Positions 36,801 to 62,980 of a stretch of 64,000 nucleotides of DNA are shown one piece after another. Every line of letters begins with the position of its first letter. The first letter of the stretch is position 1. The DNA is taken from the NCBI GenBank assembly GCA_964187785.1, contig OZ076409.1, forward strand, positions 4,032,001 through 4,096,000, given 5' to 3'. Source of the stretch: Amphiscolops sp. MND2022. Its lineage: Eukaryota. The notes beneath the pieces were generated by a model. That model did not search any database. It was not told the origin of the DNA and saw only the letters and a list, made by a program, of their open reading frames with translations. The position numbers and the translations under genes are program-made.

Positions 36801-36899
36801 TTTAAAACTTTTCAAGTTGAAGAAAGATTCTACGAAGATGTCAATGAGTTGTGACAAATATTGGCGGGTGTTTGAACCAAAAGTGAAGAAGTTTTGAAA

Positions 36900-39800
36900 A
36901 GTCTAGGTTCGAAGTGAAGTTCACTTTCAACGAAAGTGACTAGCGGGCGGATGCAAAGAATTTGTTCTACAGTGGAAATGGTTCAAATGTTTGAAAAGTT
37001 GTTGTACCAATAGATAATGAGACAAAGTGTTAAAGTTTTTCTTCCACTTTTCTGGCGTGAAAATTTTTCAAGTGAAAAATCTAAAAGAACTAATAAATTC
37101 ATTCGCATGTTCGGAAGAAGAAATTTTTGTGTACTGTGAAAAAATAAATCATTGAAAATTTTTAATCCAAAGGAAAGACTTGTGTACTGTAAAAGAAAGG
37201 TGGATAAAAGTTGTTTTCATGGATGCGTATTATAGAGATTGTTTTATGCAAAAGAGTTAACATAGGAGATATAGAGATTGTATAATGCATAAAAGCGATT
37301 ATAGGAGTGTATATAGATAATTGTTGCGGTTACAGAGCAATTAGAGGATGAGTATTACTACGATTACAAAGCACTAATTCTGGGGGGTTATACGAGTATA
37401 GGTATGATTACAAGATTACAATAGACAATAATTTAGAGATTACAATGAACATACATGTTTGTTTTGAGTTAGTTCAATAATGTTAGTGTAGTCGAATTTG
37501 AAAGTTTGAAACATTCTACTCTGGTTGTCATCGACAGAGTTGAAATTGAAGAGTAACTGGAGAAGTGGAGTCGGCAAAGACCAGTTGAAGTTGAATCGGC
37601 GGAGACCAGTTGAAGAAGTGAGTCAAGAAGTTGATGCGGCAAAGACCAGGTGGAGCTGATGCTGCGAAAACCAGTTGAAGAAGTGAGACGAAGGGTGCTG
37701 TGGACCAATCGACGATAGTGTGCTAGTTGAGGTTAGTAAAGAGAATGTTGCTGCGTGCGTGTGTCTGGTGCTTTGTAGGATCGTAAATCGCTAGTTTTTC
37801 GGTGTACCCAAATTCGGTCATTATTTTATAGAAGGCGTCACAAGCTTCATCAGTTGCTGTTCTGAAGTAGTTATCGTTCGTAGTGAAAAAAGTATTGAGG
37901 ATGGAAACTGCGTTAGAAGCAGTTTGGCAAATGGCAATTTTTTGGCCATCGAGATGAATTCTTATGTACTGTTCGAAGTTTATTTTATTTTGTTTTGATT
38001 TTACACACGTTGTAGAGGACTTTGGGAAATGCACGTTTTGTAGAATAGGTTGTCTGGTCATTGTTGATCTCAAGTGAAAGCTTAAAAGCCATAGTATGAA
38101 ATATGGCGGCTCTGAGACTACTTGCGGTGGTTGAAGGAATGATGTTTGTTTTAGAATCTTGCGGAGCCATTGTGAGAGGATCGATGAGGAAGAGACGATG
38201 ATTTTGAAGCAGAAAGATGCTGCGAAAAGTTCTGATATTAGGTCTGGACATTTGCTGGTTTGGAAGAAAGAGGCAAAGAAGAAGGAAGAGAAAGAATAAA
38301 TGTTTCTAAGACAAAGACATTGTGAGAAAAGAATCAAGAATGTTCACTATATGTACAATAAGGTTTGATGCTAGATAGTATCAAATTGGGGTGCTAATAC
38401 AATTTGTATTGTATAATGTTTGTGAATGTCTTGTATTGTGTATGGAAAAAGTCTACGAGAAAAATGTTGCATGAATATAAGATTCAGTAGGAAAGTTATA
38501 AGTACCATAAGGTTGAGAGAAAGAAGTTTTATGTAATAAACTTGTACTAGAAGTTTGAGAAAAAGTTCTAGAGGTGAGTTAGGAAAACATTACCTGTATT
38601 GAAAATGAAAACATGATTGTTCCATAGTGTTCCATAGAAGAGACAATTAAAGAAATTTGTATTACCTGTAGGAAGATTCATTGAAGATTAGTTGAGTTAA
38701 ACAGAGTGGTCATGGATTCAAGAGCAGATTGTATTGCTAGTGAGGATTGTGTTATGCCTTGTGAGTCAAGTTATTGTAAGAGTTTGTGTGTTCTGTCATA
38801 GCAATGTATTATATGTGTGAGAGTGGTGATGAGAGTGTCAGAGGAGTTTCGTTTATACGGGTCCAAAAGATGTGTTATAGCTCGAATAGTACGAATGTTG
38901 CGAACTGATGAAAGTTTTTCAGGAGTATTTCGAATCGGTGAGGTATGTTCAATAGGAGGTGGTTTATGTTGCTTTTTATTGTGTTTGTACCATGTATGAA
39001 AAAATTTTGACTGAGATGAAGAGTTATTCGTTGTATGAGTGGGATCGTTTAGCAAAAGTGGTATAGTATGATTTGTCTTTATCATCGAGTGGAGAAGAAA
39101 CAAGTTGTTTGATTACTGTAAGAGGTTTGACAATTTGAGTAGGAGCATTGCAAGGCAACAGAAAATCATCGAAATGAATGAGATATTCTTGAGGTACAAT
39201 TGGTGGTCGTGATGTGTCATTGTAAGGAAGTAGAGAGAAGTATTGTTTGATAGTTACGGAGATATCATGTTATGCGAGCGTGGTCTACCGTATATAAAGG
39301 TGTCATATTGAATGGTGAAGTATGTTTGTAGTTGACAAAAAGATTGTTCTGTGGTTTTGTGTGCTGTAAAAATTTAGTATATGTTTGATGATGAAGTTTT
39401 TTGAAACAGTGAGAGAAAGGAAGGATCAGATTCGTCTGTTTTTAAGTCAAAAATATATGGGCAAAGAAAATTGAACTAAAGAGAGAAGATTTTAACTCCA
39501 TTGTCGAGCCAATATTGGTAGGGAGACATGATTTCAGAAGCTATTGATGTGAAAAAATCTTGATTTTTATCGTATAGACGAAATGTGTAGTCTGTAGGAT
39601 GCATATAAAGAATAGTTAGTTGGGCTTTGAATGTGAAATTATCTTGTGATAGAATTGGGATCAAGTGATCATCACGAGTTGTAGAAAGTGATGGTTGAGA
39701 AGGTACTTTAGGAGAAAATAAAGGTGAAGAGAGAAAAACAGGATCTTTCATGATTTCATAGCGGTTTTTCGGTGGTGGCGGTACATCATGTGTAGTATCA

Positions 39801-42800
39801 GGAGGAGTGTGAACTTTTGTAGGTGTGGTATGATCAATTTGTTCAACTTGTTCTGAAGGATGATCATGTACTTGGTCAATAGTTTCAAGGAAGAGAACAG
39901 GAGAGTCATTGAAAAGAGGTTGTGTGGTGAGATCAGAATATGATGGTTCCAGTTGAAGATCGAGATGTGCTTGTGTCATTGTGGAAAAAATTGAAAGATA
40001 TATAAGAGTTACTAACGAGTTGCTTTACCAATTTTGGTTGGTGTTTGATTTATCACGCGAATTGTTACCGTTGGATGAGGTGGATGGAGAATTTGAATTT
40101 GGAGATCAATCGTGAAGAGTAGTTGAGAAAAGTTAAAGTTGATGAGAAAGTTAAAGTTGGAAGGTAAGTGTTCTATATCAGTTTTGAGAGCAGAATGATA
40201 TCAATTTTAGAAAGATGGCGGAGGAAAAGGATGATTTGTTTCAGAGTAAACTTGGATGGAAGTATCCGTACCATTTTTGACAAAAGTGTGATCAGCTTAA
40301 GTGTCATATTGAGTAGTTGAATGGTCACGTTGATTTACATAATTGTCATGTTGAATTGCATTGGCATTAGAATAATTAGGTAGAGTCGGATTTTGTTCTT
40401 GTGAGGAAGAAAGCATGGAGGTTCGATAATGAATTGTGGGTTGAGAAAGTGGTTGTCTCTTCGGAAATAATTTAAGTTTTGTCAAACGAAATCCATTTGG
40501 ACGTTTTGTATAGAAATGTGGAGGGGAAGTATTACCAGTTGTGTTGTTAATTGAAGAGGTTTGATTGTCAGTAGAAGGATTTAAGGTGTCAGAAAAGTTA
40601 TCGTGTGATTTAGAGGTTGAAAGTGCTAACTTGGTATTCTTACTGTGAGTATGATTTAGGTCATTCACCATTTCAGCTGTGAGAATATTAAAGAAACCAA
40701 GTGCTATTGAACTAAATAAAGTAATATTTTGTTTAAAATTGTATTTAATTGAAATTATTTTATTTAGTTTTATAATGATTGTGAGAGTTGCTTGTACAAA
40801 AAGCAACGAAGAAAAACAATTCCACATTGAGTTAAAATATAGCATGGATATCCAAACAGTGCAATGAAAGCATATGAAAACCATGTAGGTGTAAGAAGAG
40901 GAGTAAGATTTATAAGTTTGTCATGTAAAGCAATACGTAATGTATTGTATGGATTTTCATGAGGAGAATTTGCATCATAGTTAGGTGTATTAGATGAAAT
41001 AAAGGAGTAGCTAAGAGTTGTTCCCAAAAGTTGAATTGTAGAATCAGAATGTTTTGAAAATAGAATTCTGTTCCAAAATTGATCAATATCAGCATTAGAT
41101 TATATGCCAGCATCTTGTGCTGTGAAATTGTTAGGACGTATTGTAGTTTTGATTTGAGAAGGTGTGGACAAAAATGGTGGTTTTCGTTTAATAGGTTCTG
41201 GTCCAAGAATGTGAAAATCTTGATCATCAGAATCAGGGTCTAGTTCGATAATGTTTCTTGGATTATTATCACATGTAATAGGAGTTGCTTAGTCATAAGT
41301 CTGTCTTGTAATTGGATCGACGTACATACGAGAATCCCTAAAGTGTATAGGTATACAATCAAAGCATCGGTCAGCTTTATATTAAGGAGAAAGAAAGTGT
41401 GGACAATCATAAAGCCAAGCAGTTGAACCTTCAACGTAAAAGAAGTTAGTTCGATTTCCTGTTAAAAGAAACTCAGCAAGTTGAGGTTTTGAACTGACAT
41501 TGCTAGTATTGTAACGAGTTGATTTCGTTCTAATTCACAAACTGTATGAAGGGTATTTAGTTCTTGTATTGTCATTGAACGGAAAACATGGTTTATAAAG
41601 TAATCAAATTTTGTACTTGCATGAGCATCGTAATCTACTGTAGCAGGGTTATTTAAAACATTTAATGCAGGAAAGATAAACTTATTATTAGAATTGTCTA
41701 ATACAATTTTACCAGAAAAACTTTCGTTGATCATAGGTTGGCGATTTGGTTGTCCTGTATGCAAATTAAAACTCTCTGTATAGGTTACAAAAAGATCAGA
41801 AAATTGTGTAGAATGAAGAAGGTCAGGTTTACCACAGAAAGTTTGAGCATTTGGAAATACTTCAAAACGTGAAAGACTAGGATTATTTGGGTTTTGTGTA
41901 TGTGGAGCATGGGGATGTACTGTACTCTTAATTCCAGATGTTGCCTCAGGTTTTGTTGAGTGTGAAGAATGTACAAAATAATCTGTTTCAATCCAATATC
42001 GATCATTAGTTCAATAAAGTCTTGTAATTTAAAAATTAAACAAAAATCATCACTAAACCAAACAAGAGTGAAAGGAGTTTTAGTAGTTGGTTTGCAAAAT
42101 CCATCTGCAAATTAGCAGGGTAAAGTATTTCCATCTATTATCGTACCGTTTTCTGTATCGTCATTTGTAAGTTCAAGTTCAGAATCTTCTAGTCGCAACT
42201 GACTAGATTGACTTCAAATTGATGATTGGCAGGACAGTTGTGATAAGTATTTTTATTTGGGTCATATATCCAATCTTTATCAGCAGCAATTAAAGTGAAG
42301 GTACCTGTGTACATTTTGTTTAATTTATAAACTGTAAAAAGAGTCTGAAATTGTTCCAAACGTTCTTGAAAGTAATAGTCTTCTAAAAGTGTGAAAGTTT
42401 TGTTGTAATGTAAGTTGTTTAATCTTTTATTCTTTGTACCATTTATATGTCTAATAATATCCTTGCATTCTAAAGGAATAAGGGTAACAGGAAGTGGCAT
42501 AGTGTTGTGGTTCCACGTCGAAATTTGACTGAGCCTTGAAAACAAAGTTTTCTTTTTTTGGCATATGCGACACATTTGTAAGCTTTAATGCGTTTAGCCT
42601 TTGCTCTGACATATAGACTTGGGCTTTAACACTGGCGTGTTGTATGTTTGAGGTAGCTTCTGTACATTGTTTCACATTGAGTAGATTAAATTGTCTCAAA
42701 TTATGTTGCTTCTCGCAATCATAATGGGAAACCATAAGGTTTGTAATATTTGGATCGTCTGATGGGAGATAGTCGTCTTTATTTGTTGGTGATATAGATA

Positions 42801-45120
42801 TAGTAGATGTAGAAGTTATTAGATATGAATAGAGTAATATATTAGTCATATAGAGAAATACATAAAGTTTAAAAGGAAGTTGTGTAATTAAGTCCAGAAG
42901 ATGGGATGTAAAACCCGATTTTGCCATATGTTAAAGAGGAAAGATTAGGATCTCTTTCAAAATCAAGGTGTACGACTTCAAAAGGAGCAGGAGTAGTTTT
43001 GTGTTCCACTTTTGCAATTTGAAAAAACTGGGTGTGGATTAAAATCTTGAAATTTGACTTTACTTTCAAAATTTAATTCTAGGTTAGGAGTTTGGAGTCT
43101 TTCAAGTTCTGTATTTTTTCTTTTGTTCGAAAGTAAATCGTGGTTTGCATTGAAGCGTTCTGTAAGGATCGGAAAACCGGCATCGTGTGATGGATCGTCT
43201 ATAGTAGTTCCGTTAACTCGAATGAGATAATCTGCAAAATTAGGAGTTGGAGGTCTAGAGTGTTTTAGAGTATAATATTCAGATATTCTAATATGTGCAG
43301 GTACAAGAGTAGGTATTATAACTTCAGAGAAAAGGTTCCCTGAAAGGAAGGCAGTTTGAGCGTCTGATGATAGAAATGAAGCGGTTTCAAGACCAGATGT
43401 AAAATATGATTGAGGGTCAATTTCTGAAGAGTGTGTTTCGGAAGATAGAGGTTGAGCGTGTTGTCTTGCAAGTCGTAGGGCAGAATACTTGAGAGAGCAG
43501 AAAAAATTAACTGTTGAAGTATCTGTACTAAGTCGGCGTGAAGGGAGGTCTCGAAGGTTATATCGATGGTATGGAACAAAAAGTGAACTTGTGGCTTCTT
43601 GCGATGGTATGTAGTCAGAAGTATTGTCCAAAAGGTTTGATAGTGATGTAGAAGCTTTTCGAAGGGGTTTTAGTGGATGATATAGTTTCGAAGAAGTTGT
43701 ACTGATTTCTGATGGTAATTGTAATAAAGGTAGTTGTGGTAATTCAGTATCTGGAATATGTACACGATTGGGTTGAGGTTGAAGTCTAACAGTTTTAATA
43801 GCAGTAAGTTGTTTGTAGTTTACGTAGCGTTCAACAGATTCAGGGTTTGGTATATGTACTAAAGGAGTATTAATTGGTGAGGTTTGAGAACGAGAAGTAG
43901 TAGGGATTTCAGTTAATGGTGGTCTACTGGTAATAGAAGAAGATGATACAGAGGATGTGTCAGTGATTTGTGATCTTGTTCTTTTGGAAGGTGTTACAGG
44001 AGTTACATTGCGAGTTCGAGATGGAGTACTGATTTGAGATTCAGAATTATTAGACAGACTTGACTTGGAGCAGAAGGAGATGTATCAGAAGAAGTATCCA
44101 GGTTATAGTGTAAACTTGAAAAGTCTTCACCTAGGCTAGATTCAGTTTCAAGTTTTTATCACTGTTCGTCGACTAGTTTTCATCAAGCCAGGAGAGTGAA
44201 TGATTATTTGTAGAGTTTTGGAGGAGGTATAAAGAATCTGTAGTCCATTTGTAATTGATGTCTCAGAGTAAAATGAATTTTGGTAGTCCTGTCTATGGAG
44301 GAGGAAGTAAATTAGACTGATCGTGAGATAAGTGTCATGATCTGTCAATAGAGATGTCAGTTTGAGGGGTTTAAATTATCAGTTTGAAAGGTGAGTTGTC
44401 ATACAGTTTGATAGGTGAGCTGTCATTTGAGGGAAGAGATGTACAATCGTAATTTGTTGTAGTTAATGGTGTCATAGGTTTTTGAGATGAATCATCATCA
44501 GAAGCTGATTCATCGGAATTAAAAGGGGAAAAAGTCACTATTTGCGTATTTAATGGGTTTTGGAATGTGAAATTGAGTGGAGTCTGAGAACCGCATGAAA
44601 CTACGCAAGTGTGGGTACAAAAGTGGTTCTTTTGTGTAGTAAGGAATTAGGTGATTTTAGTGAACATGTACTGTAGAGTCATCTTGTGAAAGGAGTTCAT
44701 ATGTAACGTCAGATAATCTTTCAAGAATTTTAAATGGTGCTATCCGAAGCGGTTTTAGTTTGTCAGAGAAATGAACGTGAGAAAAGTTTCGTTTTAAAAT
44801 AAGTGTACCAATAGTGAGTGGTTTACGTTCATGGTAGGTTTTCGTAAAATATGCATGTTAGTTATTTTTTTGAGAATGTTTTCATATACTGTAGAATATA
44901 TTTGTAACATAGTAGTTTCTACAGCGAGAAACCCTTGTGGAATGGGTTTTGAAAGAGTTCTGTAAAAGAAAGGGTTTAAATCTGTTTTGTCATAGTGAAA
45001 GTGTTCTGGAAGTTGAGAACAATATTTGGAAATACATGTTTTAGAAGTATTACGGTTAAGGTTCATGTTAAAGGTAAGGGGATTCTGGGTTGTGTGTGGA
45101 AGACAATTTCCCGTGTGGAA
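36900..45120 (-). mobile_element. Decayed env-bearing LTR retroelement E3 (integrase C-terminus, env, downstream accessory ORFs); boundaries approximate
   Basis: Strong A/C bias on minus strand; integrase-end remnants at 44600-45120 (DKLKPLRIAPFKI); YNLR motif; env fragments; extra ORFs 39476-39979 and 37723-38251. Confidence 0.7.
40300..42930 (-). pseudogene. env: env-like glycoprotein resembling chuvirus-like (class III-type) glycoproteins, frameshifted
   Basis: Hydrophobic leader, then SHYDCEKQHNLRQFNLLNVKQC, HTVCELERNQLVTILAMS, VEGSTAWLYDCP, and a C-terminal hydrophobic segment WFSYAFIALFGYPCYILTQCGIVF. Confidence 0.7.
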
Positions 45121-45859
45121 GACAAGCTTCGAGACGCCATTTTAGGAGCTTGTATGGACAATTGAACCTGACACTACACCATAAGTGATACTACAGACTT
45201 CATCGATTCTGAAGTGTGCTCTAAAACGCGTATTCAGTGTTGTTTGTCTTTTGTGACGTTTTTGTTTTTCAAGTCAAGTGTTAAATACTCAGTTACACTG
45301 TCGTTTATCACACAACTTTTATTATTTTTGAATCTCGTGAGCAACTTTCGCAGCTTTTCTTTTAGGCCAAGTGATTAGCTCGTGTGTATGGGTGGTTGGG
45401 TCTTGAGAAAATGATTTTTTTCTGCTTTGCGAATGACAATGAAGTCGTATAGAGCTACAGATTGAAAAAATTAATTAATGATTTAATAATGATTGAGTGA
45501 TAGTTTAGTTCCTAAAACGGGTAAAAGTATGAAGGAGGTGTATAAGTATTAGTTAAACAAAGCAGTTTGATAGGATATATCCTCAATTCAAAAGAGATGT
45601 AATTTTTGTTTCGTCATTAATAACATTGAAATCGTACGTAAAGGAAATGTTAAGTGAGCGTTCGAGTAGGGAAGAGCTGCGAACTTTCTGGTAAAGTAGG
45701 CTGGTTTTCTTGACTGATGAAATGATGAAATCATGCACATATTTAGTAGAAACAACCCAGGATACAGCGGAACAGCATTGTAAGCTCGATTGAAACATTG
45801 ATTTAGCCTTGGAAGAAATGCATAGAGTTATGCGTCGAGTCTTTCTCCTTTTCGTCAAA

Positions 45860-46050
45860 CCCTTCCCCATAAATCTCAACTTTGCATACATCCATCACCC
45901 CGCTGTCACTTTCTTCCTCAGCTGTGACGAATGAACCAATAAGTCCTCCTTTGGGACAGAAAACCGTCATCCAGTTACCTTTGCTTCCCACTGTTCCACA
46001 TAGAGAGCAATCTTGTTCCTTAGAACGGCAAACTCGAAATACGTAGATAT
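45860..46050 (-). CDS. Possible host exon encoding the C-terminal part of a fucolectin/F5-8 type C-like domain
   Basis: Acceptor TTTTGTAG at 46051; translation IYVFRVCRSKEQDCSLCGTVGSKGNWMTVFCPKGGLIGSFVTA...MDVCKVEIYG resembles the C..C..G.FV..CEVEVYG end of these domains; 3' end uncertain. Confidence 0.5.
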
Positions 46051-50295: not shown

Positions 50296-50927
50296 CTGAA
50301 ACAAGGAGATCAAATTAATCTTTTTCAACCTTCTTGAGAAACAAATTTGATTTTTTGTGCCTTACCAAAAAGACGCGATCAACGCCCAACCTAGCATAGT
50401 AGTAAGCGAAATGCCGATTCAGGCCAAGCAACAAAAAATTCAAGTTAAGCAAATCATTGAAATTAGCGTTTTTTCACAAAGCCAGACATTGTGCATCCAA
50501 GTGGTGACACAAGTGTTCGCGAAGTTTCGCGCGAAGCTCTGCAAAAATGACCGCCACACAAAACGCATCATAAATAAAAAATACGTACAGAAAACAGATA
50601 CCAATTTTTCTTTCTTTTTCAGTGCAATACTTCAATACGATTATTCCCTCACATACAATTATTCCCAGATATTTCTGGACGTACAATTATTCCTGGATAT
50701 TCTTGGGCGTACAATTATTCCTGGATATTCTTGGGCGTACAATTATTCCTACAAAGCTGCGGATCAGGAGAAAAGAAGAAAATCATCAAATTTTGGTTTT
50801 GTGGGTTAGTTTTTGTTGGTTTATTTTCTAAATTTTGAAGCAATTTATGGAATTAACGGTGCACAGTAAGTAATTTTTCATTTGACTGTGCACCATATGT
50901 TTCAGTTGCAATAGCGTATTAAGTACT

Positions 50928-52514
50928 ATGGTGCGGAATTTCTTGAATCGAAAGACTATTTTCTCCACCATTTTCAGAATGGATGATAAAAAAGCTTTCA
51001 ACGAAGATTTTGATGAAGTGATTGATGGTATAATTCACAAAATGAATAATGCTAAGAAGTATGAAGCACGCGAAGTTATCTTTGAGCTTAAAAAACGTTG
51101 GCCAAATTGGTTCAAGTTGAATGAAGAGGAGTTCAAGGCAGAGCAAGAGGAACTGCGTAAGAAATTAGAAAGTACAACTAATAAGGAAGCAGCTGTTTTC
51201 AAACGCTTGTTAGATTCCATTCTCCCAGAAACGGAGCAACCTCTCTCATTTAATTCCGATTCTTTGTCAACGTTGAAAGATTTTACAAATGCAATTGAAG
51301 GAATGAAAACAAATGTGAAGCTTTGTATAAGGGGATCCTTACATTATTTGCTGGATATCGCTTCCCTATTGGAACTTTCAAAAGTTAAACTTCGTCGTCG
51401 GTATTCTGATGTTTTCAAAGAATGTGGAAATTCCAAAAGCTATGGTTCTTTCATGCTTCGGCTATTATATCTATCGAGGAGTTATCCAGATTTGCGAAGA
51501 TTCTCCACACCAATTCAATATCCAAACCAATATGAAAATAAAAGAGGAAAATATTTTCAAATATTTCACTTCTCCATTTCAATGTCACCAACCGATTACC
51601 CAAGAATCAACTGACAATGACCCAATAACCGGCAATTAAATTGTATCTGTTATTATGTAATCTTTAGCTCATCATTATTGTTGCGGTACTATGAATTAAT
51701 GTTGACTTTTTCTTCATAATAAATGTATGAAACTCCGTCTCTTCATAAGTTTGGTTATTCTAGTGAACAGCTAAAACTGAGGGAATATCAGGAACTAAAA
51801 GATATAATAAAAAGTCAAGAAAAATTAGCCCAAATATCACATTCCAAATTGAAAGAAGATTTTGAAAATGAATTAGGAAACTTATCAGGAAACCTATCAG
51901 AAAATCATGAGAAATTAAACACTCTAGACCCAGAGGAAGTTCAAAATGTTTTATTAAACACAAAGTTAACCAATGATGTTTATTCCCAGTTTTCAGACCT
52001 TTCAAAAACCATAAATAAGTTAGAACAAAACATGAAAAAATTATTCGCCGAACAAAGAACTGCTTTAGTAAATGAAGTACTAAATTTAATACACAACAAT
52101 AGTTTTGAAATGTTAACAGTCCGTAACTTAAAGTTTATGTCAACTCCGGGTCATGCTGGAATGATTTTGAATGAGAATGAAATTAATAAACTCTTTTAAT
52201 GTCTAGATCAAAATAAAATTACAGTAACTAACAACATAATTCAACTGCTTTATGACAAAGGTTTGTTTGATTCTTTTCCGAGTAAATATCAAGCTTTTGC
52301 ACATTATCTAACTTTCAGTGAATCCTATTTAAAAGAAAAGTATGGAAAAACAATACCTACTTCAGATGGTGAATATTGTTTGTCTCATTTAGAATATTCT
52401 ACCAGACAATCAATTCTGGAGTCATTGAAAAAAGATTCCTATAAAGAACTTGTTGATATGAAACACAGAATGAAATTAACACCAACGGAAATAAATTTCA
52501 TTTTATATGATTAA
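50928..52514 (+). CDS. Polinton ORFs of unknown function (50928-51614; 51723-52514 broken)
   Basis: Long charged, helical-looking ORFs between the putative terminus and pPolB; no motif recognised. Confidence 0.5.
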
Positions 52515-52517
52515 TAA

Positions 52518-52964
52518 ATGGAACAAAATCTCTATCCCTCAATGACCCCCTCCGCACCATATGATGTAGAATCAATGATAAATTAGCAATTAGCAAAAGT
52601 ATCTAGTTTCAACAATCATATTCAAAACATTAGTCTAATGATGAAATATTATGAATTGGAAGAAAAAAAATACAAACAAAAATACACCAAATGCAAGCTA
52701 ATAAATAACATAATTACCTCGACAGATGGTCTTATAATAATAGGAACAACTTCAGCATCCGTTACACTAAGTATTACTGGTGTGGGTATTATAGTTGTTC
52801 CAATCACTGCAGGAGTTGGTTGTGTAACTGGTATTCTTGTTAAAATCTGTTCCAGTTATTTGAAGAAAAAGGAGCAAAATTATAAACCTAAGTACGCTAT
52901 TATTCAGAAGACACTTGATGACTTTAGACAATTATTTACCACTACCCTAAAAATAATCACATAG
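52518..52964 (+). pseudogene. Polinton small membrane-associated protein
   Basis: Basic coil followed by Gly-rich hydrophobic hairpin GLIIIGTTSASVTLSITGVGIIVVPITAGVGCVTGILV. Confidence 0.55.
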
Positions 52965-53322
52965 ATGAAAAAGAATATCACCGATTTGTGAACATATATG
53001 AAAATTATCGCGAAGCTTCGCGCGTAGCTTCACAATATCACAAAATATAACAAACAAGCGTGCGAAGCTATGCGATACAGCAACACCGACTACAACAATG
53101 ACATCGCATATGCCATCGCATAAGCCATACAGTTTTTTATAATTAATTTATTCAATTTTAACATAAAAAGTAAAATAAAAATTAACAATAATAATGAACA
53201 TCATTAATTGAAAATACATTATTTTTAACAAAAAAAGTAAAATAAAAATTAACACTCATTAATTGAAAAATATAATATTGAAAAATATACTGCTATTAAA
53301 TTCGTAAACTTATTATAGTTAA

Positions 53323-56300
53323 ATGGAGAACTGTAGTATTTGTAATTTTGATTATAAAAAAACTTTCAAGTCTGATCATCTAAATTCAGTAAAACATTTA
53401 GAAAAATTAAATCATTATTATTGTAAAAAGTGTAATAATATTTTGCCCTTATCAGACAAGTCAAATCATTTAAGTTCAGACCAACACAAGAACAAAACCA
53501 AACAACAACAAATTTTGTGTGAAGATTGTGGTAAATACATTAGTGATAAAACAAGACATTTCCTAAGTGAAATTCACACGTTAAGATGTCAAAACAACCG
53601 CGAAAGCTATCGCGAAAGCTATCGCGAAGCTACGCAAAATGCTTTCGGTAATACAGCGTCCGTGCATGGAGTAGAAGTAATTGTGAATGAAAAAACATAC
53701 ATTAAACTGAGAGTAAATCCAACTGACACACAAAATCTCGAACGTCACATAAATGAACTACTAGATAAAAATTACTTTACCCGATATATATCATTTGAGT
53801 TATTTAGCTAAGTTTTCAAAAATAGTTAATGGAGAAGAAAATGTAATTCACAAATGGGTTAAATCAGATTGTAATTACAATCACATGCAAAGCACCTTCG
53901 GCACAAATCATACAATTCACAACACAATAATGCAGAATTTAGATGATGACCAATTAGAAGGATCAGGTTTTGTGTTAAACGGTATTGTCAATGTTATGTT
54001 ATATTAGGAATATATAAAGTCAATGATATTCAAGCTTCTTCATACATTGAGTTGCCAGAAAAATATAAGAATAATAAATCAATTATAAATATGAAAAATG
54101 ATGATCAATTTTGTTTTCTATGGTGTATCTTAGCACACATTTGTCCCGTTGAGGATCATAAAAATAGAACATCAAATTATTTAATGCACTTCGATAAACT
54201 CAACCTGAAAGGATTGGAACTCCCCATGAAAGTTAAAGACATTCCCAAGTTCGAAAACTTAAATAATTTAAACGTAAATGTATTTGAATTAAACGGAACA
54301 GTTTTAACACCAATCCACACTGAGTTAGAATACAAACTATGATCAACCAGAAATAGACTTGCTGCTATTTGAAAATCATTATTGCCTAATAACAAAGGTG
54401 CATTGTCTAATAAATAAGAATTCACACATGAAATGGGTGTGTAGAAGATGTCTAACTGCATTTAGTTCTGAGGATATTCTCAATCAACACATTGACCGTT
54501 GTCAAAAACAACAACCAACTAATATCACATTCAGTTGGAAGGATCATTTAAAGTTCGAAGATTATCATATGAAAGTTCCTGTACCAATAAGAGTATATGC
54601 AGATTTCGAATGTATTAATCAACCAACAGATGACTCCAAAGGTGACCGCGAAGCTGCGCCCAAAGTATTATTTAAACAAATTCCAATTGCAGTAGGATTT
54701 TATCTAATTTCACCATTTGGGAACGAGCACTACTCATACTTTGGAGTAGATTGTGTAGCACGGTTTGTAAATGAAATGTTGACTTTAGCAAAAATTGCAT
54801 CGGAATATTTCGAATCTAATATCCCCCTTGAAGTCGCAGAAGGCGTAGCTTCGCAAGAATCATTTCAACAATCTACCATATGCTGGCTTTGCGAAAATCC
54901 ACTCGGTGATACTAAAGTTCGAAATCACGATCATCTTACAGGCAAGTACCGAGGAGCAGCTCACAACAGGTGTAGTTTAAATTGTAAAAAAAGTCAATTT
55001 CGTTTGTTCCCATATTGTTCCACAACTTCTCTGGGTATGATTGTCATTTAATTTTTGAACAACTCTCAACCGAATCATTCAATCAAAATTATATTCCAAC
55101 GATAATACCAAAGTCAATGGAAAACAATGTATCAGTTCAAGTAGGTTGCTTTTGTTTCCTGGATTCATACCGATTTCTTTCTTCTAGTCTACAAAAACTT
55201 ATAGCATCTCTTGATACTCTTAAGTATATGAATAGTGAAGGTTTGATTGATGATTTGTTCAGAAGAAGTTAGCCTATCCATATGAGAAATTCCATCTTAA
55301 TAATTTCCAAGAACCATTAAATCTAACAAAAGAAGACTATTGGTCAACATTAACACAATCCTACCCGTGTGATGATGACATAAAAAGAACCCAACTATTA
55401 ATTGACAACATTACAACACCTCAACAACTTACTATTTTATACTTAAAAATGGATGTCCTTCAACTAATTGATGTCTTTTAGAACTTTGTGCAAACATCCA
55501 CTGAAGAGTGTGGCATCTATCCATTGTACTCCTTCTCAGCTCCTGGGTATACATGGAAAGCAGGATTGAAGTTGACTAAAATAAAGTTAGACTTTATAAA
55601 AGATAAACACTTGGTATTGTAATGGGAAAAAAACATACGTGGAGAATTTTCAAGTGTCATGGGTGATCGATTTGTTGAATCAAACGAAAATAAACAAATC
55701 TTGTACATCGACGCTAATAATCTATATGGATGCGCAATGAGTCAATACCTTCCTACAGGCACATTTGAAAATCTATACTTTCCACAAAAGTATGGCGAAG
55801 CTACGCAACTAGAACAAATAGTAGAAGATTTAAGATATATTCCAGACAACAACCCTTATGGATTCTTCATAGAATGTGATTTAGAATATCCAGCTGAAAT
55901 CAAAGAAAAAACCGAAAACTTTCCACTTTGTCCTTATCAAACAAAAGCAGATCCAGGGTGTTTCTCAGATTATATGAATAGTGTAAAACAACCCAATTAC
56001 AAACCAGCCCAGAAACTTGTGTGTGACCTAACAAACAAACAAAATTATATGATGCACAATAGGATGTTCAAGTTTTACACTAAAATGGGGATGAAAGTAA
56101 CACATATTCATACAACCTAGCGCTTCAAGCAAAGTCCATGGTTAGCAAAATACATTGATCATAACACACAAAAACGTACCAAAGCAAAAACAAACTTTGA
56201 AAGAGACTTGTACAAATTAAGGAATAATGCTTTCTTTGGTAAGACTCTGGAAAATGTAAGAGACCGTGTTAATCTAGAATTCAATGATCATTCTCGAATA

Positions 56301-57163
56301 CAGCAAATAATAAAAAGACAATCCAAGTTAAGTTTCAAAGGTATTGTGGATTGGTACAGTGTGTTTAGTGTGTACAAGTTTGATAAAGAAAAAACAGTCT
56401 TTGATAAACCAATGTATTCAGGTTTTACAGTTTTAGAACTAAGTAAGTTACTAATTTATGAATTTTATTACAATACTTTACAACCACATCGGCAAAATAA
56501 AGTACAATTTCACTACATGGATACAGATTCTTTTGTTCTTAGTTTTGACAGTTAGTTGGAAAATTTAATTGAGTTTTTAAAACAAAATAAAGATGAATTT
56601 GATTTCAGTGAACTAGACAATGCTCATCAACTGTACAACCCAACCAGCAAAAAAGTTATAGGAAAAATGAAAATTGAAACAAGTCCAGTTTTGGTGCTAG
56701 ATAGCTTCACAGCTTTGAGATCTAAATCGTATTCTTTTAGTTATAATGATATTAAGAATCCGAAACAAAGAGGAATACAAAACGCCCCTGAATCTGAAGA
56801 CTACACACGTTGTTTGTTGATGTCCGAAACAACAAGTGCAACAAACTATTCAATTAGATCTAATTTACACAAACTAAGTGTGGAGAAACAAATCAAACTA
56901 GCCTTGAATCCTTTTGATGACAAGCGTGTGTACTTAAATCCAATACAAAGTTTATCATGAGATAAACACACCCAGAAAGGTGATTGTCCCTGTATATATT
57001 GTTTGAAATTGATAGGTTTGTATTATAAAGAATTGAGCACAAGTGAAACGGATGGCAATCCCCTCCAGGATGAAGAAATATTCTATAACATTTGGACTCT
57101 GAAAGAAAAATTGAATCATCAAGATCTTTTAAATCTGATAAGTGATCGAGCCCATTTTTTGTG
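53323..57163 (+). pseudogene. polB: Protein-primed family B DNA polymerase with N-terminal zinc fingers and endonuclease VII-like insert, fragmented
   Basis: QLEGSG, FCFLWCILAH, HYCLI, YADFE, HDHLTGKYRGAAHNRC, FHNFSGYD, FLDSYRF, YIDANNLYG, KLRNNAFFGK, YMDTDS. Confidence 0.96.
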
Positions 57164-57199
57164 ACACACACCTTTTATTATTTTTGCGAAGCTACGCGT

Positions 57200-58391
57200 T
57201 TCATATTTTTTATAACAAATTATCAAATGGCAGCATTAAATTTAAATTCTAATCTGATTGGTTGAGAAGCTTTTTGGTCTTTTTGTTTGCTTAGGTCAAA
57301 TACATAAAAATTATAATTTGTCCTGAATTCATGCAAATCAATAATTGTGTTGAGTAAGTTAGTTTCGCTTTTTAAGTGATAAAAGTTTTCAATTTCACAG
57401 TATGCTTGATCATATTTGTCGCGGTCGTAGTCACATTCTATTCCATCATCGGGATATTTTTCTGATCCTATTTTACAAACAGCATTTGAAATTGGTAACC
57501 TATCAAATGTTGCATTATTGTGTGTTTGTGAATCATTTTTATTTCTACCTTGAAATCCAACAATCACAAAAGTTGGTGTCGATATTCCTGAAATGCCTAA
57601 GTCAAATGTCCAATTGTTATTGGTGTTAACATCTTTTCTAAAAACAAATCTTTCAATGTAATGCAATTCGGTTGGGTTTTTATTTAGAATTTGGTCCATG
57701 ACAAGTTGCTGGTTTTCTAAATTTGGTACATAGTGTGGAATATACCAAATATGTCTTTTACAACTACTTTTGCAGCATTCACACCGTTGGTACGAAAGAC
57801 AACATCATTGTTAGTTTTCCGTTTTAAAGTAAAAGTGTAGCCCAATCCATAAGTTATTTGTTCTTGATCAGCAATTCCAAACAAGTCTTTTAAGTTTATT
57901 TTCACAAAAAAGGTTCCTTTCTCTGTCCTATCGTTTGTTAGTTCTTGTCTTCTGATAGTAGTACTTTCTTCAAACCCATACATCAATTAGGAAGTTTGTT
58001 GACTGCTAGTTAAAAGTTTATACATTAAAGAAATTGGGTGCAAATTGTCAACTTTTTCCAAATGCTTGCCCGAACTTGTTGTCAGCTTAGCTTCACTAAA
58101 TAAAGCAACGGGCCCAAAGTTAACCAAGCTTATCTGATCACCATCGGCATATCTTGTATCATCATTTTTAAGAACTTCGAATTCTACACATATGAATGAG
58201 TGTTGCAAACATATGTATGCATCTTCTCTTGGCAAACTGATTGAAATGTTTAAATTAATATTATTGATTGTCGCTAAACTACTTGGACTATATTTAATAA
58301 AATCAATTTTATGAATAGGTTTTTCGAGTGTGTATTTACTTTTTGAAGAAAACATTGAGGTATCCACTGAAACCGAAATTAGAGAATTCAT
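57200..58391 (-). pseudogene. Polinton major capsid protein (double jelly-roll), broken
   Basis: ORFs 57987-58391, 57717-57986, 57223-57699; LVNFGPVALFSE, PTFVIVGFQ, IGSEKYP, YVFDLSKQ..PIRLEFKF resemble Polinton MCP as recalled. Confidence 0.8.
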
Positions 58392-58415
58392 TTATATTTA
58401 AAAATTATTGGAAAC

Positions 58416-59291
58416 TTACTCCATTTTGTGGAAAATATTCGTACTTTCTAACGTTTTGTTGTTAGAGTCAAAGTTGAATATACTTCTTAAAAGTTCTTGC
58501 TCATAGTATTTTCCTTGAATAATTTTCTTGTTTCCATCTTCCAAAGTGTATGTTTCTGGGTTCGTTGAAGTAATTTTGTGTATTTTGAAAAGTTCTCTGT
58601 TCCAATTTGTTGTATAACCTTCTGAATAAATGTTCCGTTTGTCAGGAACTCTTACAAAATCTCCCACTTGGAACTTGGGCGAAGCTGCGTGGAATTTGGG
58701 CAATTTATTCTTATGATTATTAATATTGGGTCTTGGTTTATTAAAACTCATTTCATATGATGTCATTTTTGTTGTACCATGAACGCGATTATTATACTTT
58801 TGTAAAGCAGCATAAAGGTGATTCAAACAGTTACTTTTACCCTCAATGTACATTGGTTCTTTGATTAAGTCCAGAAGTGTTTTATTGAAGCGTTCAACAA
58901 AAACAGCTTTCAAATCTGAATTGGTTGAATAAATTCGAATGTTTTGCTCGTTTAAATAGTGTAAAAATGTCTGGTTGTAAAACTTTTTACCTCTATCGCT
59001 CCGCACTTTTTGTGGTTTTCTTTTACTAGTTTCTATTAGTTTCTTGAATGCAGCAGTTGAACTTGTTCCTGATTTATCTTTAAGAGGAATCGCCCATGCA
59101 CATTTAGTATGATTGTCAATTATTGTGAAAATGAAGTTGTAGTTTTTGTTGTTTTTGCTTAAACTTGAGCGGTCAATTAAATCGATACTCCAACATTCAT
59201 CTTTATAGTGAATTTGAATTTGAATTCTTTGAAACTTCTTGATTACAGGAGAGAATATTTCTTCAGCGATTTTTTTCTTACTTTGATTCAT
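58416..59291 (-). CDS. int: Polinton retroviral-like (rve) integrase
   Basis: WSIDLID, FTIIDNHTK, SDRGKKF, VERFNKTL, FQVGDFVR, GYTTNW; uninterrupted 291 aa. Confidence 0.93.
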   Translation of the reverse strand: MNQSKKKIAEEIFSPVIKKFQRIQIQIHYKDECWSIDLIDRSSLSKNNKNYNFIFTIIDNHTKCAWAIPLKDKSGTSSTAAFKKLIETSKRKPQKVRSDRGKKFYNQTFLHYLNEQNIRIYSTNSDLKAVFVERFNKTLLDLIKEPMYIEGKSNCLNHLYAALQKYNNRVHGTTKMTSYEMSFNKPRPNINNHKNKLPKFHAASPKFQVGDFVRVPDKRNIYSEGYTTNWNRELFKIHKITSTNPETYTLEDGNKKIIQGKYYEQELLRSIFNFDSNNKTLESTNIFHKME

Positions 59292-59324
59292 TCAATATAG
59301 TTTTATACAATTTTTTGTAAATAA

Positions 59325-60299
59325 ATGAATGATGATTATTACAGATGTTCTCACAAGAATTCGGCGGAAGACACGAAGGTACCCAAAGCCACTACCAAAA
59401 GCACTACCAAACTTTGGTTGTGGAAATTTAATTCGCGAAGCTACGCAATGATTATTATTACTAAGTGGTACAAAAAAATATATAAAAAACTATTACATTT
59501 TGAAGGGTTCAAATACTCTCATCTTACAAACCAAGAACAACAAGGCGGAGATTCACAAGAACAAGCGCTAACTCAACCAGTCAGTAATACAAACTGCCAT
59601 ATGTTAATTTATGGAAGTAGTGCGTCAGGGAAGACATCTTTCCTCAAGGATTATTTAACACAGATTCAACGGAGTTACATAGTATTTGGACGAGATGAAA
59701 AAGAGTTTCCTGCTTCCAACTATATACCCTTGTTACAGTTAGAAAAAATAGGTATTGAATCACTTGCTAATAAAACGGTTATACTGGATAATTCAGGTGC
59801 ATACAAAAGTCTTAAAACAAAAGTAGAAGACATCTTCCGGTTTGGTAGACATCATAACATCCAGGTGATATATTTAGCTCACCTTGCAAAGGATGTTCTC
59901 CCAATAGTGAGAGAGAATTGTTTTAAGATCTTTATAACAATTAATAACCCAGATAACTTTTTTGAAACTATAATACAAACTTATTCAATCAAAGACGGAG
60001 TTACACAATCAAAGTGGAAACAATACCGTGATCAGTTAGAATTCGGTATTAATGAATTTGACACTAGGAGTCAGAAGTACAAAATAAAAAACAATAAGTA
60101 CAATTTAATTAATTGTATTTCTAGTAAGCGCAACAGGTGGGGTCCAGAGGATTATGCTGCTTATGAAAGTTATTTTTTCACTGGTGAGGAATACAACAAA
60201 CTCAATGTATTTTTAAAGGAGATGTCTGACCAGACAATTGAAATAACACCATACAACATAGCTTTTTATTATGTATATTATTGTAAACAAAAAAAATAA
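59325..60299 (+). CDS. A32/FtsK-like packaging ATPase 1
   Basis: Walker A YGSSASGKT, Walker B-like VILDN, GRHHNIQVIYLAH, VRENC. Confidence 0.85.
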   Translation: MNDDYYRCSHKNSAEDTKVPKATTKSTTKLWLWKFNSRSYAMIIITKWYKKIYKKLLHFEGFKYSHLTNQEQQGGDSQEQALTQPVSNTNCHMLIYGSSASGKTSFLKDYLTQIQRSYIVFGRDEKEFPASNYIPLLQLEKIGIESLANKTVILDNSGAYKSLKTKVEDIFRFGRHHNIQVIYLAHLAKDVLPIVRENCFKIFITINNPDNFFETIIQTYSIKDGVTQSKWKQYRDQLEFGINEFDTRSQKYKIKNNKYNLINCISSKRNRWGPEDYAAYESYFFTGEEYNKLNVFLKEMSDQTIEITPYNIAFYYVYYCKQKK

Positions 60300-60859
60300 A
60301 AGTGAATGAATCCAAAAAAGACAACTACGTTGAGCGTATGCAACAACCACTAATTAATGATTCAGCTAAAGAGGACTTCAAGAAAATTATATATGATCAT
60401 GCCAAAAGTTTTAATAAAAATAAGCTAAATAATGTTTAGTGATTTCGTGAGTAATTAGTGAGTATTTAGTGATTATTTAGTGATTCTTAGAGAAAGTTGA
60501 GTAATTAGTGAGTATTCACTAAGAGCCCCATAATCACTAAGCATTTCACTAAGAGCATATTTTTTCTCTAAATTTCTCTCTGCACTTGGGTCTTAGAGAA
60601 AATATATGCTCTTAGAGAATGCTTAGTGAATTGGGGAAATTAGTGATTTTTCCTTAGTGATTTGCTTAGTGATTTACTTAGTGATTCTGAGTGATTATTA
60701 GTGAATTTTTACTAAATAAATTATGGGGATGAGATGTCTAATTTGTAATGAAAGTAGTGAAAAATCACTGTGTGATAATTGTAGTAATAAAAAAAGATGT
60801 AAGGAATATAATATTATGTGAAGTTACAGAAAGATTTTTATTCATAAAAAATTGGTAAA

Positions 60860-61925
60860 ATGTATAGTACATGCATTCAATGTTTTAATAAAAAAGTGAG
60901 GTGTGTATTTTGTAATAAGGAATTGAATAAGAATTATTTAAGGTCTCACGTCAAGAAGCAGCATATCAAGAACCAGCATATCAAGAACCAGTATTCTAAT
61001 CAGGATGATAAACGCACAGGTTCGCGCGCAGCTTCACACAATGATGAAGCACAGGAGCATTTGCAGCTTCGCACAAGAAATATTACCGTGGGTGACTTGC
61101 TTCCTACGCAGCTTCCCACCAAATTAAATAATGATAATAATAATGATGATAATAATAATGAGTGTAATAAAACATTAATAGTTGGTCCATCTTTTTGTGG
61201 TAAGACTCATTTGTTATTAAACAAATTACAATTAATTCGATTGAGTGATAGTGAAAAACAAATAAAAATGATAACTAGATCTCCGGGACAATACCTGAAC
61301 ATACAACTAGGGGACGCCGAAGGTGCTTTGCATGTTTCAGTGGAAGAAGATCTAGAAGATAGAACAATACAAGATTTTAAAAATTGTTGTGTTATATTTG
61401 ATGATATGTTAGAATCAAATCAGAAATTGATTGATCCATTTTTACTAGGGGAAGACACAATTTGTGTGATGTTTATTATTTAAGTCAGAGTTACTTCGAT
61501 GTACCCAAACGCACCATACGCATGAATAGTAATATCATAATTTTTTTGGACAAAGCTTGAGAGATGTAGAACACATTTATCGAGACATAGCTGGGTTTGA
61601 TACATTACGATACATATGCCGCAACGATCTACCAAGATCTTGCTAGTTCGATTAACAGCCAATGAAAACGCGTTATTATTCTGAAATAACGCGTTTTCAT
61701 CGACTGTTAATCGAACTAGCAAGATCTTGCTAGTTCGTCGCAGCTTATGTATCGTAATCTATGTCTTCTGACGAATTCAAGGAATTGTGCAGAGAGGCAA
61801 GGGAAGAAAAATAAAATTATTTAGAAATAAATATGTTAGAAGATAAAAATGAGAGTAAATATAAAATCTGCAATGAATCTAATCCAAATTACAAGATCTT
61901 TAATCCACAAACGGAACCGTTTTAA
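60860..61925 (+). pseudogene. A32/FtsK-like packaging ATPase 2 with N-terminal zinc finger; frameshifted and interrupted by a MITE
   Basis: CVFC..H; VGPSFCGKT; VIFDD; after a shift TRGRHN..VYYLSQSYFDVPKRTIRMN. Confidence 0.85.
61603..61759. mobile_element. 157-bp foldback MITE with TA duplication inserted in ATPase 2
   Basis: Whole element is an imperfect hairpin; removing it plus one TA restores GAT ATG TCT and the reading DIAGFDMSSDEFKELCRE. Confidence 0.9.
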
Positions 61926-62980
61926 ACGGAGGTGGAATCAAAATTGCTTAGTATGCTTTGGTGTTGATTTGTTGTAAAGCATTCATACTCTAATAGTTTA
62001 TCTACAATTGCTACGATTTGTTCATTGAGTAGAAAACTGTCATTTCCTCCTACATTTTCAAATTAAAGAAGTTTTAATTTATCCACTAATTCGTCTGGAT
62101 CAGATGGGAGGAAGACGTACTGTTTGTGTAGCTTCGCGTAGCTTCGCCATTTAATCCACTTCCCACCTAATTGTTATCGATAGTATTAACCCCAAGGGGG
62201 AAACTGCGCGGATTGTTGATGGCGAGAGTACAACGCTTCAATAAAATAACATCTCGTTGATTTTTTATCTCTATAATATATGTTATATTCATATCATTTA
62301 GGGAACTATAAATTGTGTCCAGGTTATTTATTTCTCTATCAAATTGAGTGTTAGTTATAAAATGTTGAAGATCTGGGTCATTTAGATTGTATGAATGCTC
62401 ATTCTGGAAAGTCATTGTTGAACCTTTGATTAGTACAGGTTGTGGATTGAAGGGGTTAATTGTGAATAAAGTCGGGTTGTCTTGTGTAATTGGTTCTAAA
62501 CTAAATTGACTTTTGTTTTTGTCATTAAGAAGGTTGGAAACTGTCTTAACGATACTAGAATCAACTTGGTTGGAATTAACAAGACTGGCAAGGAGCTGGT
62601 TATTGCGATTTGTAATATCATTATAATATTGTAATTTGTAAGTTTTTTTGCAGATTATTATTACTTTCTTGTATTCCTTCTTTAATAGCTCTTGTCTGAT
62701 CTTCTATTGCCTGTGTGGTTGTTTGAGAAGAATCATGTAGTTGTTGGTTAATGGCTTGTAGTTGCCTTTCAGATGCCTGAATTTGCTTTTCAGATAATTG
62801 TTTCTGGTTTTCAGTAGCTTCCGCCTGCTTTGTAGTAACAGGTTCAAAAACTTTTTCCATATCGTAGTGAAAGTCTTGCTTCCCTAGTTTCTCTTTTAAC
62901 CTTTCTTTGTGTAGTAAAGATTTTGTTTCTTGCAATTTTTTAATTTTTCCAAGTCGTCCCTATTACGAATTGAATACATT
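61925..62980 (-). pseudogene. Polinton coiled-coil ORF, broken
   Basis: ORFs 62621-62935 and 62167-62415 plus C-terminal DPDELVDKLKLL...EQIVAIVDKLLEYE. Confidence 0.5.

Follow-up and report, generated by a model that had tools for sequence, protein, structure and literature searches.

What is the short GC-rich palindrome that recurs through an AT-rich Polinton, and how did it come to lie even within the genes of that element? The question is raised by a 64-kb stretch of the Amphiscolops sp. MND2022 assembly (contig OZ076409.1, positions 4,032,001 to 4,096,000), hereafter the window, whose coordinates are used throughout unless another source is given. A complete ~15-kb Polinton at 50398-65386 houses all exact matches of the motif GCGAAGCTRCGC in the window. 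Comparisons between copies of this Polinton family showed that the motif is a discrete unit that has been repeatedly inserted, tandemly duplicated and lost. On balance, it is probably a hairpin micro-insertion, specific to this lineage and self-propagating, which is generated while the element itself replicates.

Enrichment of the motif and its two classes

The window holds seven exact matches of GCGAAGCTRCGC, at 53624, 54648, 55795, 57186 and 59435 on the + strand and at 54843 and 62136 on the - strand (span 53624-62147), whereas 0.00 are expected from 100 dinucleotide shuffles. With up to two mismatches allowed on both strands, 29 matches were found, all within 50519-62209, compared with a shuffle mean of 1.52 and a maximum of 5. 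Positions 50531, 53010, 53022, 53062, 58679, 61026, 61061 and 62126 are among these matches. The original prediction, made from the letters of the window, had listed positions at which a 12-mer recurs; all of them were recovered, 53600 and 53612 as members of a second class, GCGAAAGCTATCGC. The units thus form two symmetric classes, a 12-mer GCGNAGCTNCGC and a 14-mer GCGNNAGCTNNCGC. The units of the window copy are as follows.

50519-50542: two degenerate units, GCGAAGTTTCGC and GCGAAGCTCTGC, inside the left terminal inverted repeat (TIR), also present in the right TIR
53010-53073: intergenic array upstream of the DNA polymerase gene polB, with GCGAAGCTTCGC (a perfect palindrome), GCGTAGCTTCAC and GCGAAGCTATGC
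53600-53635, + strand: in-frame polB array of two 14-mer-class CGCGAAAGCTAT units and one 12-mer GCGAAGCTACGC, read as RESYRESYREAT
54648-54659, + strand: 12-mer GCGAAGCTGCGC in polB (DREAAP)
54843-54854, - strand: 12-mer, GCGTAGCTTCGC on the + strand, in polB (GVAS), a clean 12-bp block
55795-55806, + strand: 12-mer GCGAAGCTACGC in polB (GEAT)
57186-57197, + strand: 12-mer between the convergent polB and capsid genes
58679-58690, + strand: decayed unit GCGAAGCTGCGT in the linker of the integrase (gene-strand reading HAAS)
59435-59446, + strand: 12-mer at the 5' edge of the ATPase frame
61014-61117: cluster of four decayed units in the linker of an open reading frame (ORF) with zinc-finger and P-loop motifs (60860-61483)
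62126-62147, - strand: two units with a 10-bp period (GTGTAGCTTC GCGTAGCTTCGC), directly 3' of a minus-strand ORF

Close to the array upstream of polB, a 12-bp tandem repeat of ATGCCATCGCAT (2.6 copies, 53098-53128) resembles a decayed CGCGAAAGCTAT array. A reading of GAAGCTTC as a heat-shock element was dropped: the common variant contains TAC instead of TTC, and the arrays have a period of 12 instead of 10.

The motif was then counted in 11 whole copies (150,381 bp) of one Polinton family in one genome, to which 2 partial copies were added for alignment. The 11 copies contain 78 12-mers, 101 14-mers and 2 mixed 13-mers, a unit being 12 or 14 bases long and rarely 13, and five scrambled control patterns gave 0 matches. 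No 12-mer, 13-mer or 14-mer unit was found in 70,311 bp of non-Polinton DNA (window 1-50000 and a further 20 kb of non-Polinton flank), in agreement with the earlier remark that the preceding 50 kb lack a full 12-mer. The count of the motif in Polinton copies against background, which had been proposed as a check, therefore returned strong enrichment. In the whole genome, the patterns of the 12-mer, the 14-mer and the mixed 13-mer match 3664, 5326 and 1091 sites, compared with 134, 226 and 389 for the respective reversed controls. Among the first 50 sites listed per class, 41 (12-mers) and 47 (14-mers) lie in clusters of at least four or in known copies, and every cluster retrieved is a copy of the window's Polinton family, 72-88% identical to the window copy. 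Most 12-mer and 14-mer units of the genome thus belong to clusters that represent copies of a single Polinton family. Solitary GCGNAGC half-sites are enriched too (132 inside the copies vs. 12 outside; control heptamers 3-22). Along the element, 43 units are oriented to the + and 23 to the - strand, with no polarity switch of unit orientation.

Shuffles together with reversed and scrambled controls exclude chance or artefact as the source of the motif, and units also occur in proteins predicted from other assemblies. Three solitary genome matches (L024, L025 and L027, at 5.43, 6.52 and 8.94 Mb of G000:C1) were rejected as clean insertions; they belong to another dispersed repeat family, and their motif-like GC-rich stretches (e.g. 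GAGCGAAGCGAAGCGGAGCGA) are part of the repeat's own sequence. A mixed 13-mer array, GCGRAGCTTTCGC, with an 11-bp period appears in the pattern listing at G000:C1:67813419-67813497. A pattern scan of IMG/VR gave 120 loci of 1-3 units each, with a lowest G+C of 0.44 and most above 0.55, which were dismissed as chance matches in GC-rich phage DNA. A search of viral contigs with the window integrase found no relative, and the protein atlas gave Polinton-type integrase clusters only. A metagenome scan for arrays of 2.5 units was likewise discarded: nearly all of its 119 loci are single 12-bp tandem repeats in GC-rich DNA, and the 12 most AT-rich of them showed no tblastx similarity to the Polinton. 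One metagenome contig (L176, 1903 bp, 36.8% G+C) carries at positions 39-66 a CGCGAAAGCTAT array as at window 53600, and has no nucleotide or translated similarity to the Polinton beyond the array.

Units are discrete insertions that turn over between copies

The polB region (window 53300-57300) of the 13 paralogous copies was aligned with MAFFT. The indel blocks of at least 10 bp comprise 2 of 10 bp, 2 of 11 bp, 13 of 12 bp and one each of 15, 20, 24 and 45 bp, making 12 bp the dominant length in this range and a local peak in the length spectrum. The motif is found in 10 of the 13 12-bp blocks, the regular expression having played no part in building the alignment, and the remaining three resemble decayed units. 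Clean filled and empty pairs occur at ~53832, 54625, 54721, 54843, 54912, 55307, 55795 and 57062, and at 64611 outside the gene. At these nine clean sites the inserts run exactly from GCG to CGC, with a junction ambiguity of 0-2 nt, and none is flanked by a target-site duplication (TSD). The blocks at 54721, 55307 and 57062 are each private to a single copy and are therefore gains by parsimony. The 14-mers are 12-bp additions beside an existing GC, with the reading frame kept. Adjacent units are 12 or 10 bp apart in arrays of 1 to 4 units, the 14-mer class having a 12-bp period, and a compound of mixed 14-mer and 12-mer was found again at two unrelated loci. The recurring compound suggests copying of unit blocks from site to site. 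A unit is a 6+6 or 7+7 inverted pair, yet it lacks the TSD of a TIR transposon or miniature inverted-repeat transposable element, and it differs between paralogous copies as a 12-bp indel rather than as an oligomer built by point change.

Comparison of the copies site by site showed extensive turnover. The array at 53010-53073 differs in unit number and type in every aligned copy, and the one at 53600 carries 0, 1 or 2 CGCGAAAGCTAT ahead of the 12-mer. At 54648, a unit or decayed unit is present in 12 of the 13 copies, with extra flanking units in cD, cB, cJ and cL; it is missing in cK, and its absence from one copy nested among carriers points to a probable secondary loss. The block at 54843 is present in four of the 13 copies (the window copy, cL, cF and cI), which are not the nearest relatives of one another. 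The site at 55795 is a clean 12-bp gap in cK, cL, cD, cG and cF and is doubled in cC, and arrays of differing composition occupy the spot at 57186 in most copies. Copy cF (L042/L043, G000:C1:28657001-28677000) also has an internal tandem duplication of ~3.6 kb, and the units of one half recur at matching relative places in the other (1373/1561, 4994/5182).

Over the whole length of the 11 copies, the exact units fall into 46 site bins, of which 15 are private and 13 are found in two copies. The widest bin is filled in 8 of 11 copies, and none is filled in all 11. Unit density varies four-fold between copies (0.54 to 2.06 per kb), and the number of 14-mers per copy ranges from 1 to 26. Units lie in both TIRs of the window copy; cG and cD share just the first 45-70 TIR bases, and their first ~200 TIR bases contain 0 units. 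Beside the 78 exact 12-mers there are 78 one-mismatch variants, 49 of which are CpG transitions. The units decay in chromosomal copies after integration.

Units within proteins

The closest 120 integrase homologues (73-82% identical, 284-317 aa) come from other assemblies. In the linker before KFQVGDFVR they differ by four-residue blocks (RDSY, RSFA, QSFA, HAAS, RAAS, CAAS), the number of such units ranging from 0 to ~5 and some intact homologues having none. The pattern RS[FSYC]A has 37 matches in 36 of the 120 close homologues (shuffled 0.3), and R[DE]SY has 48 matches in 29 of them (shuffled 0.7), whereas neither is matched in 150 distant representatives at 50% identity or less. As far as the integrase shows, the phenomenon appears to be lineage-specific rather than general to Polintons. 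Similarly, 14 full-length polB homologues (1200-1293 aa) show indel blocks of 4 aa (12 blocks) and 8 aa (2 blocks), and the inserted peptides include REAA, GVAS, GEAA, QSFA and EATREATH. The units persist where multiples of three bases are tolerated.

The alignment of homologous proteins had been suggested as a check of the original prediction, and in both families (120 integrases, 14 polymerases) the units are insertions. Together with the alignment of paralogous copies, this bears out the proposal that the motif enters genes as in-frame insertions. The further idea of a tiny self-propagating insertion is well supported by clean 12-bp blocks at many sites, private to one or a few copies.

Sequence rules of the units and the mini-hairpin consensus

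Read on the top strand, positions 1-7 of the 12-mer spell GC-GNA-GC, and so do positions 12-6 read on the bottom strand; its ten fixed letters are exactly those of these two sequences, with the central GC common to both. The 14-mer has the same arrangement with GC-GNNA-GC on each strand. Both classes therefore match, by class definition, the mini-hairpin consensus GCGNAGC or GCGNNAGC on both strands of every unit. The earlier statement that the opposite strand also reads GC-GNA-GC holds at the sequence level and extends to the second class. A section of PMC13037366 describes GCGNAGC and GCGNNAGC mini-hairpins as stable in 7 M urea, nuclease resistant and poor in binding single-stranded-DNA-binding protein (SSB).

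The free positions are hypervariable, with 7 variants among 88 12-mers and 29 among 112 14-mers, and a GAA loop on one strand is kept in 81 of the 88 12-mers. An A hardly ever precedes a unit, and hence a T hardly ever follows one. An A was found at 0 of 104 flanks (52 distinct isolated sites), among the units examined at 1 of 192 flanks of the 12-mers and 7 of 220 of the 14-mers, and at 119 of 7328 flanks genome-wide (control 60). An A at this position would pair with T8 and give a longer mini-hairpin stem. N9 seldom complements N4, perfect palindromes making up 8 of 88 12-mers and 2 of 112 14-mers. Both depletions, of the A flank and of complementary N, point to likely selection or survivorship against longer intrastrand stems. 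The nearest-neighbour fold of a single unit is -1.2 kcal/mol (z -0.57 vs. shuffles), in a model that does not describe sheared G.A loops, and that of multi-unit arrays is -12.7 kcal/mol (z -2.9).

Favoured explanation

The explanation that we favour is a lineage-specific micro-insertion: a complete blunt unit is gained at new sites, tandemly duplicated, copied as part of multi-unit blocks and later lost. The sequence constraint on the unit equals the mini-hairpin consensus, and hairpin folding in single-stranded DNA is therefore probably the driver and would make the unit prone to copying, expansion, slippage and deletion. The single strands would be those bared by protein-primed, strand-displacing replication of the virus-like genome; since the 70 kb of non-Polinton DNA sampled is free of units, the process probably takes place in the replicating phase. 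Most units would then be tolerated passengers, surviving between genes and within protein linkers in multiples of three bases. Expansion of arrays and precise loss fit the well-known hairpin-mediated slippage. A candidate enzyme is an Endonuclease VII-like stretch in the protein-primed polymerase.

Several points weigh against this explanation. The copies are related by descent, so that unit counts are not independent events, and the presence of the 54843 unit in non-sister copies requires recurrent gain, recurrent loss or recombination. Single units fold no better than shuffles in the nearest-neighbour model, and flank and loop rules as strong as these imply that structure is selected. Most copies have arrays at the same gene boundaries, namely before and after polB and 3' of the ORF at 62167, and this recurrence could reflect function. 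Blunt, complete units without microhomology are better explained by the insertion of a discrete fragment than by simple template switching. The mechanism is inferred, and the origin of an isolated unit at a naive site lies outside the explanation.

A bolder form of the favoured explanation is conceivable, although we regard it as doubtful. The 12-bp unit would be the smallest self-propagating DNA insertion yet seen, a non-coding, TSD-free 'nano-element' that needs only a mini-hairpin on each strand and is mobilised in Polinton replication by a structure-specific activity of the element. The mobilising activity might be the Endonuclease VII-like domain or copy-choice of the polymerase at SSB-free hairpins. 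If so, a virus-like transposon would host its own parasite, which rewrites viral proteins four residues at a time.

Alternative explanations

Beside the self-propagating insertion, the original prediction had offered a selected signal for protection, packaging or recognition of single-stranded DNA (ssDNA). A signal tied to position does not agree with the site bins, none of which is filled in all 11 copies, nor with the density range of 0.54-2.06 per kb, the absence of TIR units in cG and cD and the CpG decay. What is left of this proposal is a cis-acting signal selected at the level of density, a possibility that we consider rather unlikely, in which mini-hairpins on both strands would act as SSB-free priming landmarks, exonuclease stops or packaging and recognition sites, and new units would be kept as an aid to replication. 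The predicted hairpin on both strands at the same place, the mean spacing of ~1 unit per kb, the units in both TIRs of the window copy and the arrays recurring at gene boundaries would all be in line with it, as would the flank and loop rules in so far as they show structural selection. Mini-hairpins also lie at the primase start sites of the ssDNA phages G4, St-1 and alpha3 and in N4 virion RNA polymerase promoters, and they bind SSB poorly, according to the relevant part of PMC13037366. However, no site is common to all copies, density varies four-fold with 1 to 26 14-mers per copy, intact integrases exist without a linker unit, and the first ~200 TIR bases of cG and cD are unit-free. Moreover, A is missing at -1 and complementary N are few, so that the sequence rules act against longer stems, whereas maximal protection predicts the reverse, and the 150 distant Polinton-type integrases have no such peptides, so that other lineages appear to manage without units there.

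The symmetric conservation GCG..AGCT..CGC could alternatively mark the site of a dimeric protein, either a host transcription factor or one of the zinc-finger proteins of the element, with the palindrome acting as promoter, terminator or insulator and spreading via gene regulation. The intergenic arrays at 53010-53073 (upstream of polB), 57186 (convergent), 59435 (divergent) and 62126 (after an ORF) and the zinc-finger-like motifs in polB and ORF 60860 would suit such a role. It is nevertheless improbable: about half of the unit clusters of the window copy lie inside coding sequence, no known family was matched, and a dimer does not predict classes of 12 and 14 with few 13-mers (2 vs. 78 and 101), whereas the mini-hairpin family predicts GNA and GNNA. 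Very unlikely, in our estimate, is an origin as repair scars or footprints, that is, filler DNA at double-strand breaks or excision remnants of a small TIR transposon whose six- or seven-base ends form a palindrome. Blunt complete inserts with no TSD and 0-2 nt of junction ambiguity would suit scars, a palindrome can be read as two inverted 6- or 7-base ends, and the location of most 12- and 14-mers in Polinton clusters would fit breaks during Polinton replication. However, a parent transposon with such ends was not seen, a footprint normally retains its TSD and is variable in length, neither arrays nor the copying of multi-unit blocks from locus to locus would be expected of footprints, and a pool of free 12-bp fragments has no known source.

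The Polinton and its surroundings

The element that carries the units was identified by its ends and its genes. Its right end lies 1.4 kb past the window end (locus L031). The main features are as follows.

50392-50397: left 6-bp TSD, TAGCAT; right copy at 65387-65392, past the window end
50398-50562, + strand: left TIR, 165 bp, beginning AGTAGTAAGCG; right TIR at 65386-65221 (L031)
53323-57160, + strand: protein-primed family B DNA polymerase gene (polB), in several frames, with stops and frameshifts in the window copy
57223-58391, - strand: double-jelly-roll major capsid gene, in three frames in the window copy, without units (PF21738, 44.5 bits)
58416-59291, - strand: rve integrase, an open 291-aa frame (PF00665, 38.7 bits; cut-off 32.6)
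59325-60299, + strand: Pox_A32-like packaging ATPase (PF04665, 32.4 bits)

The left and right TIRs are 91.6% identical across 166 bp, and the TSD TAGCAT flanks the element on both sides, as in Polinton/Maverick transposons. The polB frames contain a YMDTDS motif, and the double-jelly-roll capsid, A32-like packaging ATPase and rve integrase expected of such elements were all recognised by Pfam. The original prediction was thus correct in naming a Polinton. Its start at 50516, however, marks the first motif, inside the left TIR, and not the end of the element, whose true limits are 50398-65386. The window polB fragments alone gave no Pfam match in a profile search, whereas among 305 polB homologues, including the 14 of 1200-1293 aa, one listed homologue has a precomputed match to PF03175. 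As to an adenovirus-type cysteine protease, the ORFs at 62-65 kb gave no Pfam match at an E value of 0.01 in the part of the element inside the window. Zinc-finger-like motifs occur in polB and in ORF 60860-61483.

An Endonuclease VII-like (PF02945) stretch lies inside polB at ~54866-54976. Two full-length polB homologues score 25.6 and 24.2 bits (cut-off 23.6), while a third, at 23.4 bits, and the degenerate window copy, at 13.8 bits, fall below the cut-off. Such a domain has been noted in insect Maverick polymerases (in a portion of PMC5803895) and is therefore not specific to the unit-bearing lineage.

Other repeats were observed in and around the element. A foldback of 163 bp at 61600-61762 has 78-nt arms that are 90% complementary and 7 nt apart, and it may be a separate small inserted hairpin element. 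A subterminal 28-bp tandem repeat (3.5 copies, 50654-50750) lies just inward of the left TIR, and a non-coding stretch at 60442-60704 contains TTAGTGA-type repeats with 11-12 bp periods. Some 8 kb before the window start (G000:C1:4010001-4024000; L032, L033), the Polinton family is represented by a second copy, 73-82% identical to the window copy. The host DNA upstream of the Polinton (36000-46000) has a strong positive GC skew of 0.26-0.50 in 2-kb windows.

Implications and comparison with known systems

If the favoured explanation is true, a stable mini-hairpin of DNA, until now a curiosity of chemistry with a few phage examples, suffices for a 12-bp sequence to reach thousands of copies and to place four-residue peptides into the polymerase, integrase and ATPases of a eukaryotic virus-like transposon. 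The units would then offer a natural system for hairpin-caused insertion, expansion and deletion in displaced single strands. By their sequence they would also sharply mark one Polinton lineage and help to date its copies. Any mechanism is constrained by the same three rules: a length of 12 or 14 and rarely 13, an A almost never before the unit, and an N rarely complementary. By the titles and abstracts of the open-access papers searched, no published account of such a motif in Polintons was found, and no title listed for the exact 12-mers concerned mobile elements.

Among familiar short repeats, the Rickettsia palindromic elements are bacterial, ~100-150 bp long, and tolerated in frame in protein genes. 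The Polinton units resemble them as in-frame tolerated palindromes and differ in length, in host and in the mini-hairpin consensus, which the Rickettsia elements lack. Chi, KOPS, DNA uptake sequences and cyanobacterial HIP1 originate by point substitution, and many are strand-polar. Like these, the Polinton units are short motifs that occur about once per kb in and outside genes; however, they are 12-bp indels and have no polarity switch. Ordinary minisatellite slippage produces arrays like those seen here, with 1-4 units, a period of 10 or 12 bp and a varying number of copies, but it cannot make an isolated unit at a naive site, of which there are at least nine here.

The mini-hairpin DNAs d(GCGNAGC) and d(GCGNNAGC) of Hirao and colleagues (reviewed in PMC13037366, in part) have fixed letters equal to those on each strand of a unit, with the free N varying. 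Natural cases cited in that part of the review each occupy one site, at a phage ssDNA origin or an N4 promoter. In contrast, ~9000 double-stranded units, in which the two strands' predicted hairpins overlap, are dispersed here in an insertion-like manner in a eukaryotic virus-like transposon.

The nearest known kind, judging from the part of PMC4478555 that describes them, are the mobile palindromic GC clusters of AT-rich organelle genomes, such as GC42 of yeast mitochondrial DNA. Related organellar elements are the repetitive hairpin-forming sequences of sponge mitochondrial DNA (PMC2800124) and the Allomyces double-hairpin elements (as cited in PMC7218506, in part). Both the yeast clusters, as covered there, and the Polinton units are GC-rich palindromes in AT-rich DNA that occur sporadically at homologous positions, have loops more variable than stems, and merge or shuffle into compound arrays. 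The Polinton units thus show the features by which a mobile GC cluster is recognised: a GC-rich palindrome, sporadic occurrence and variable loops. However, GC42 has an AG target-site duplication according to the same part of PMC4478555, whereas the Polinton units have none. The mitochondrial clusters, as described there, are organellar, 30-60 nt or longer and mostly intergenic, whereas the Polinton units are 12 bp long, nuclear or viral, and commonly in frame in genes. If the favoured explanation is correct, mobile palindromic GC clusters would no longer be confined to organelles: the class would take in nuclear viral elements, and units as short as about a dozen bases.

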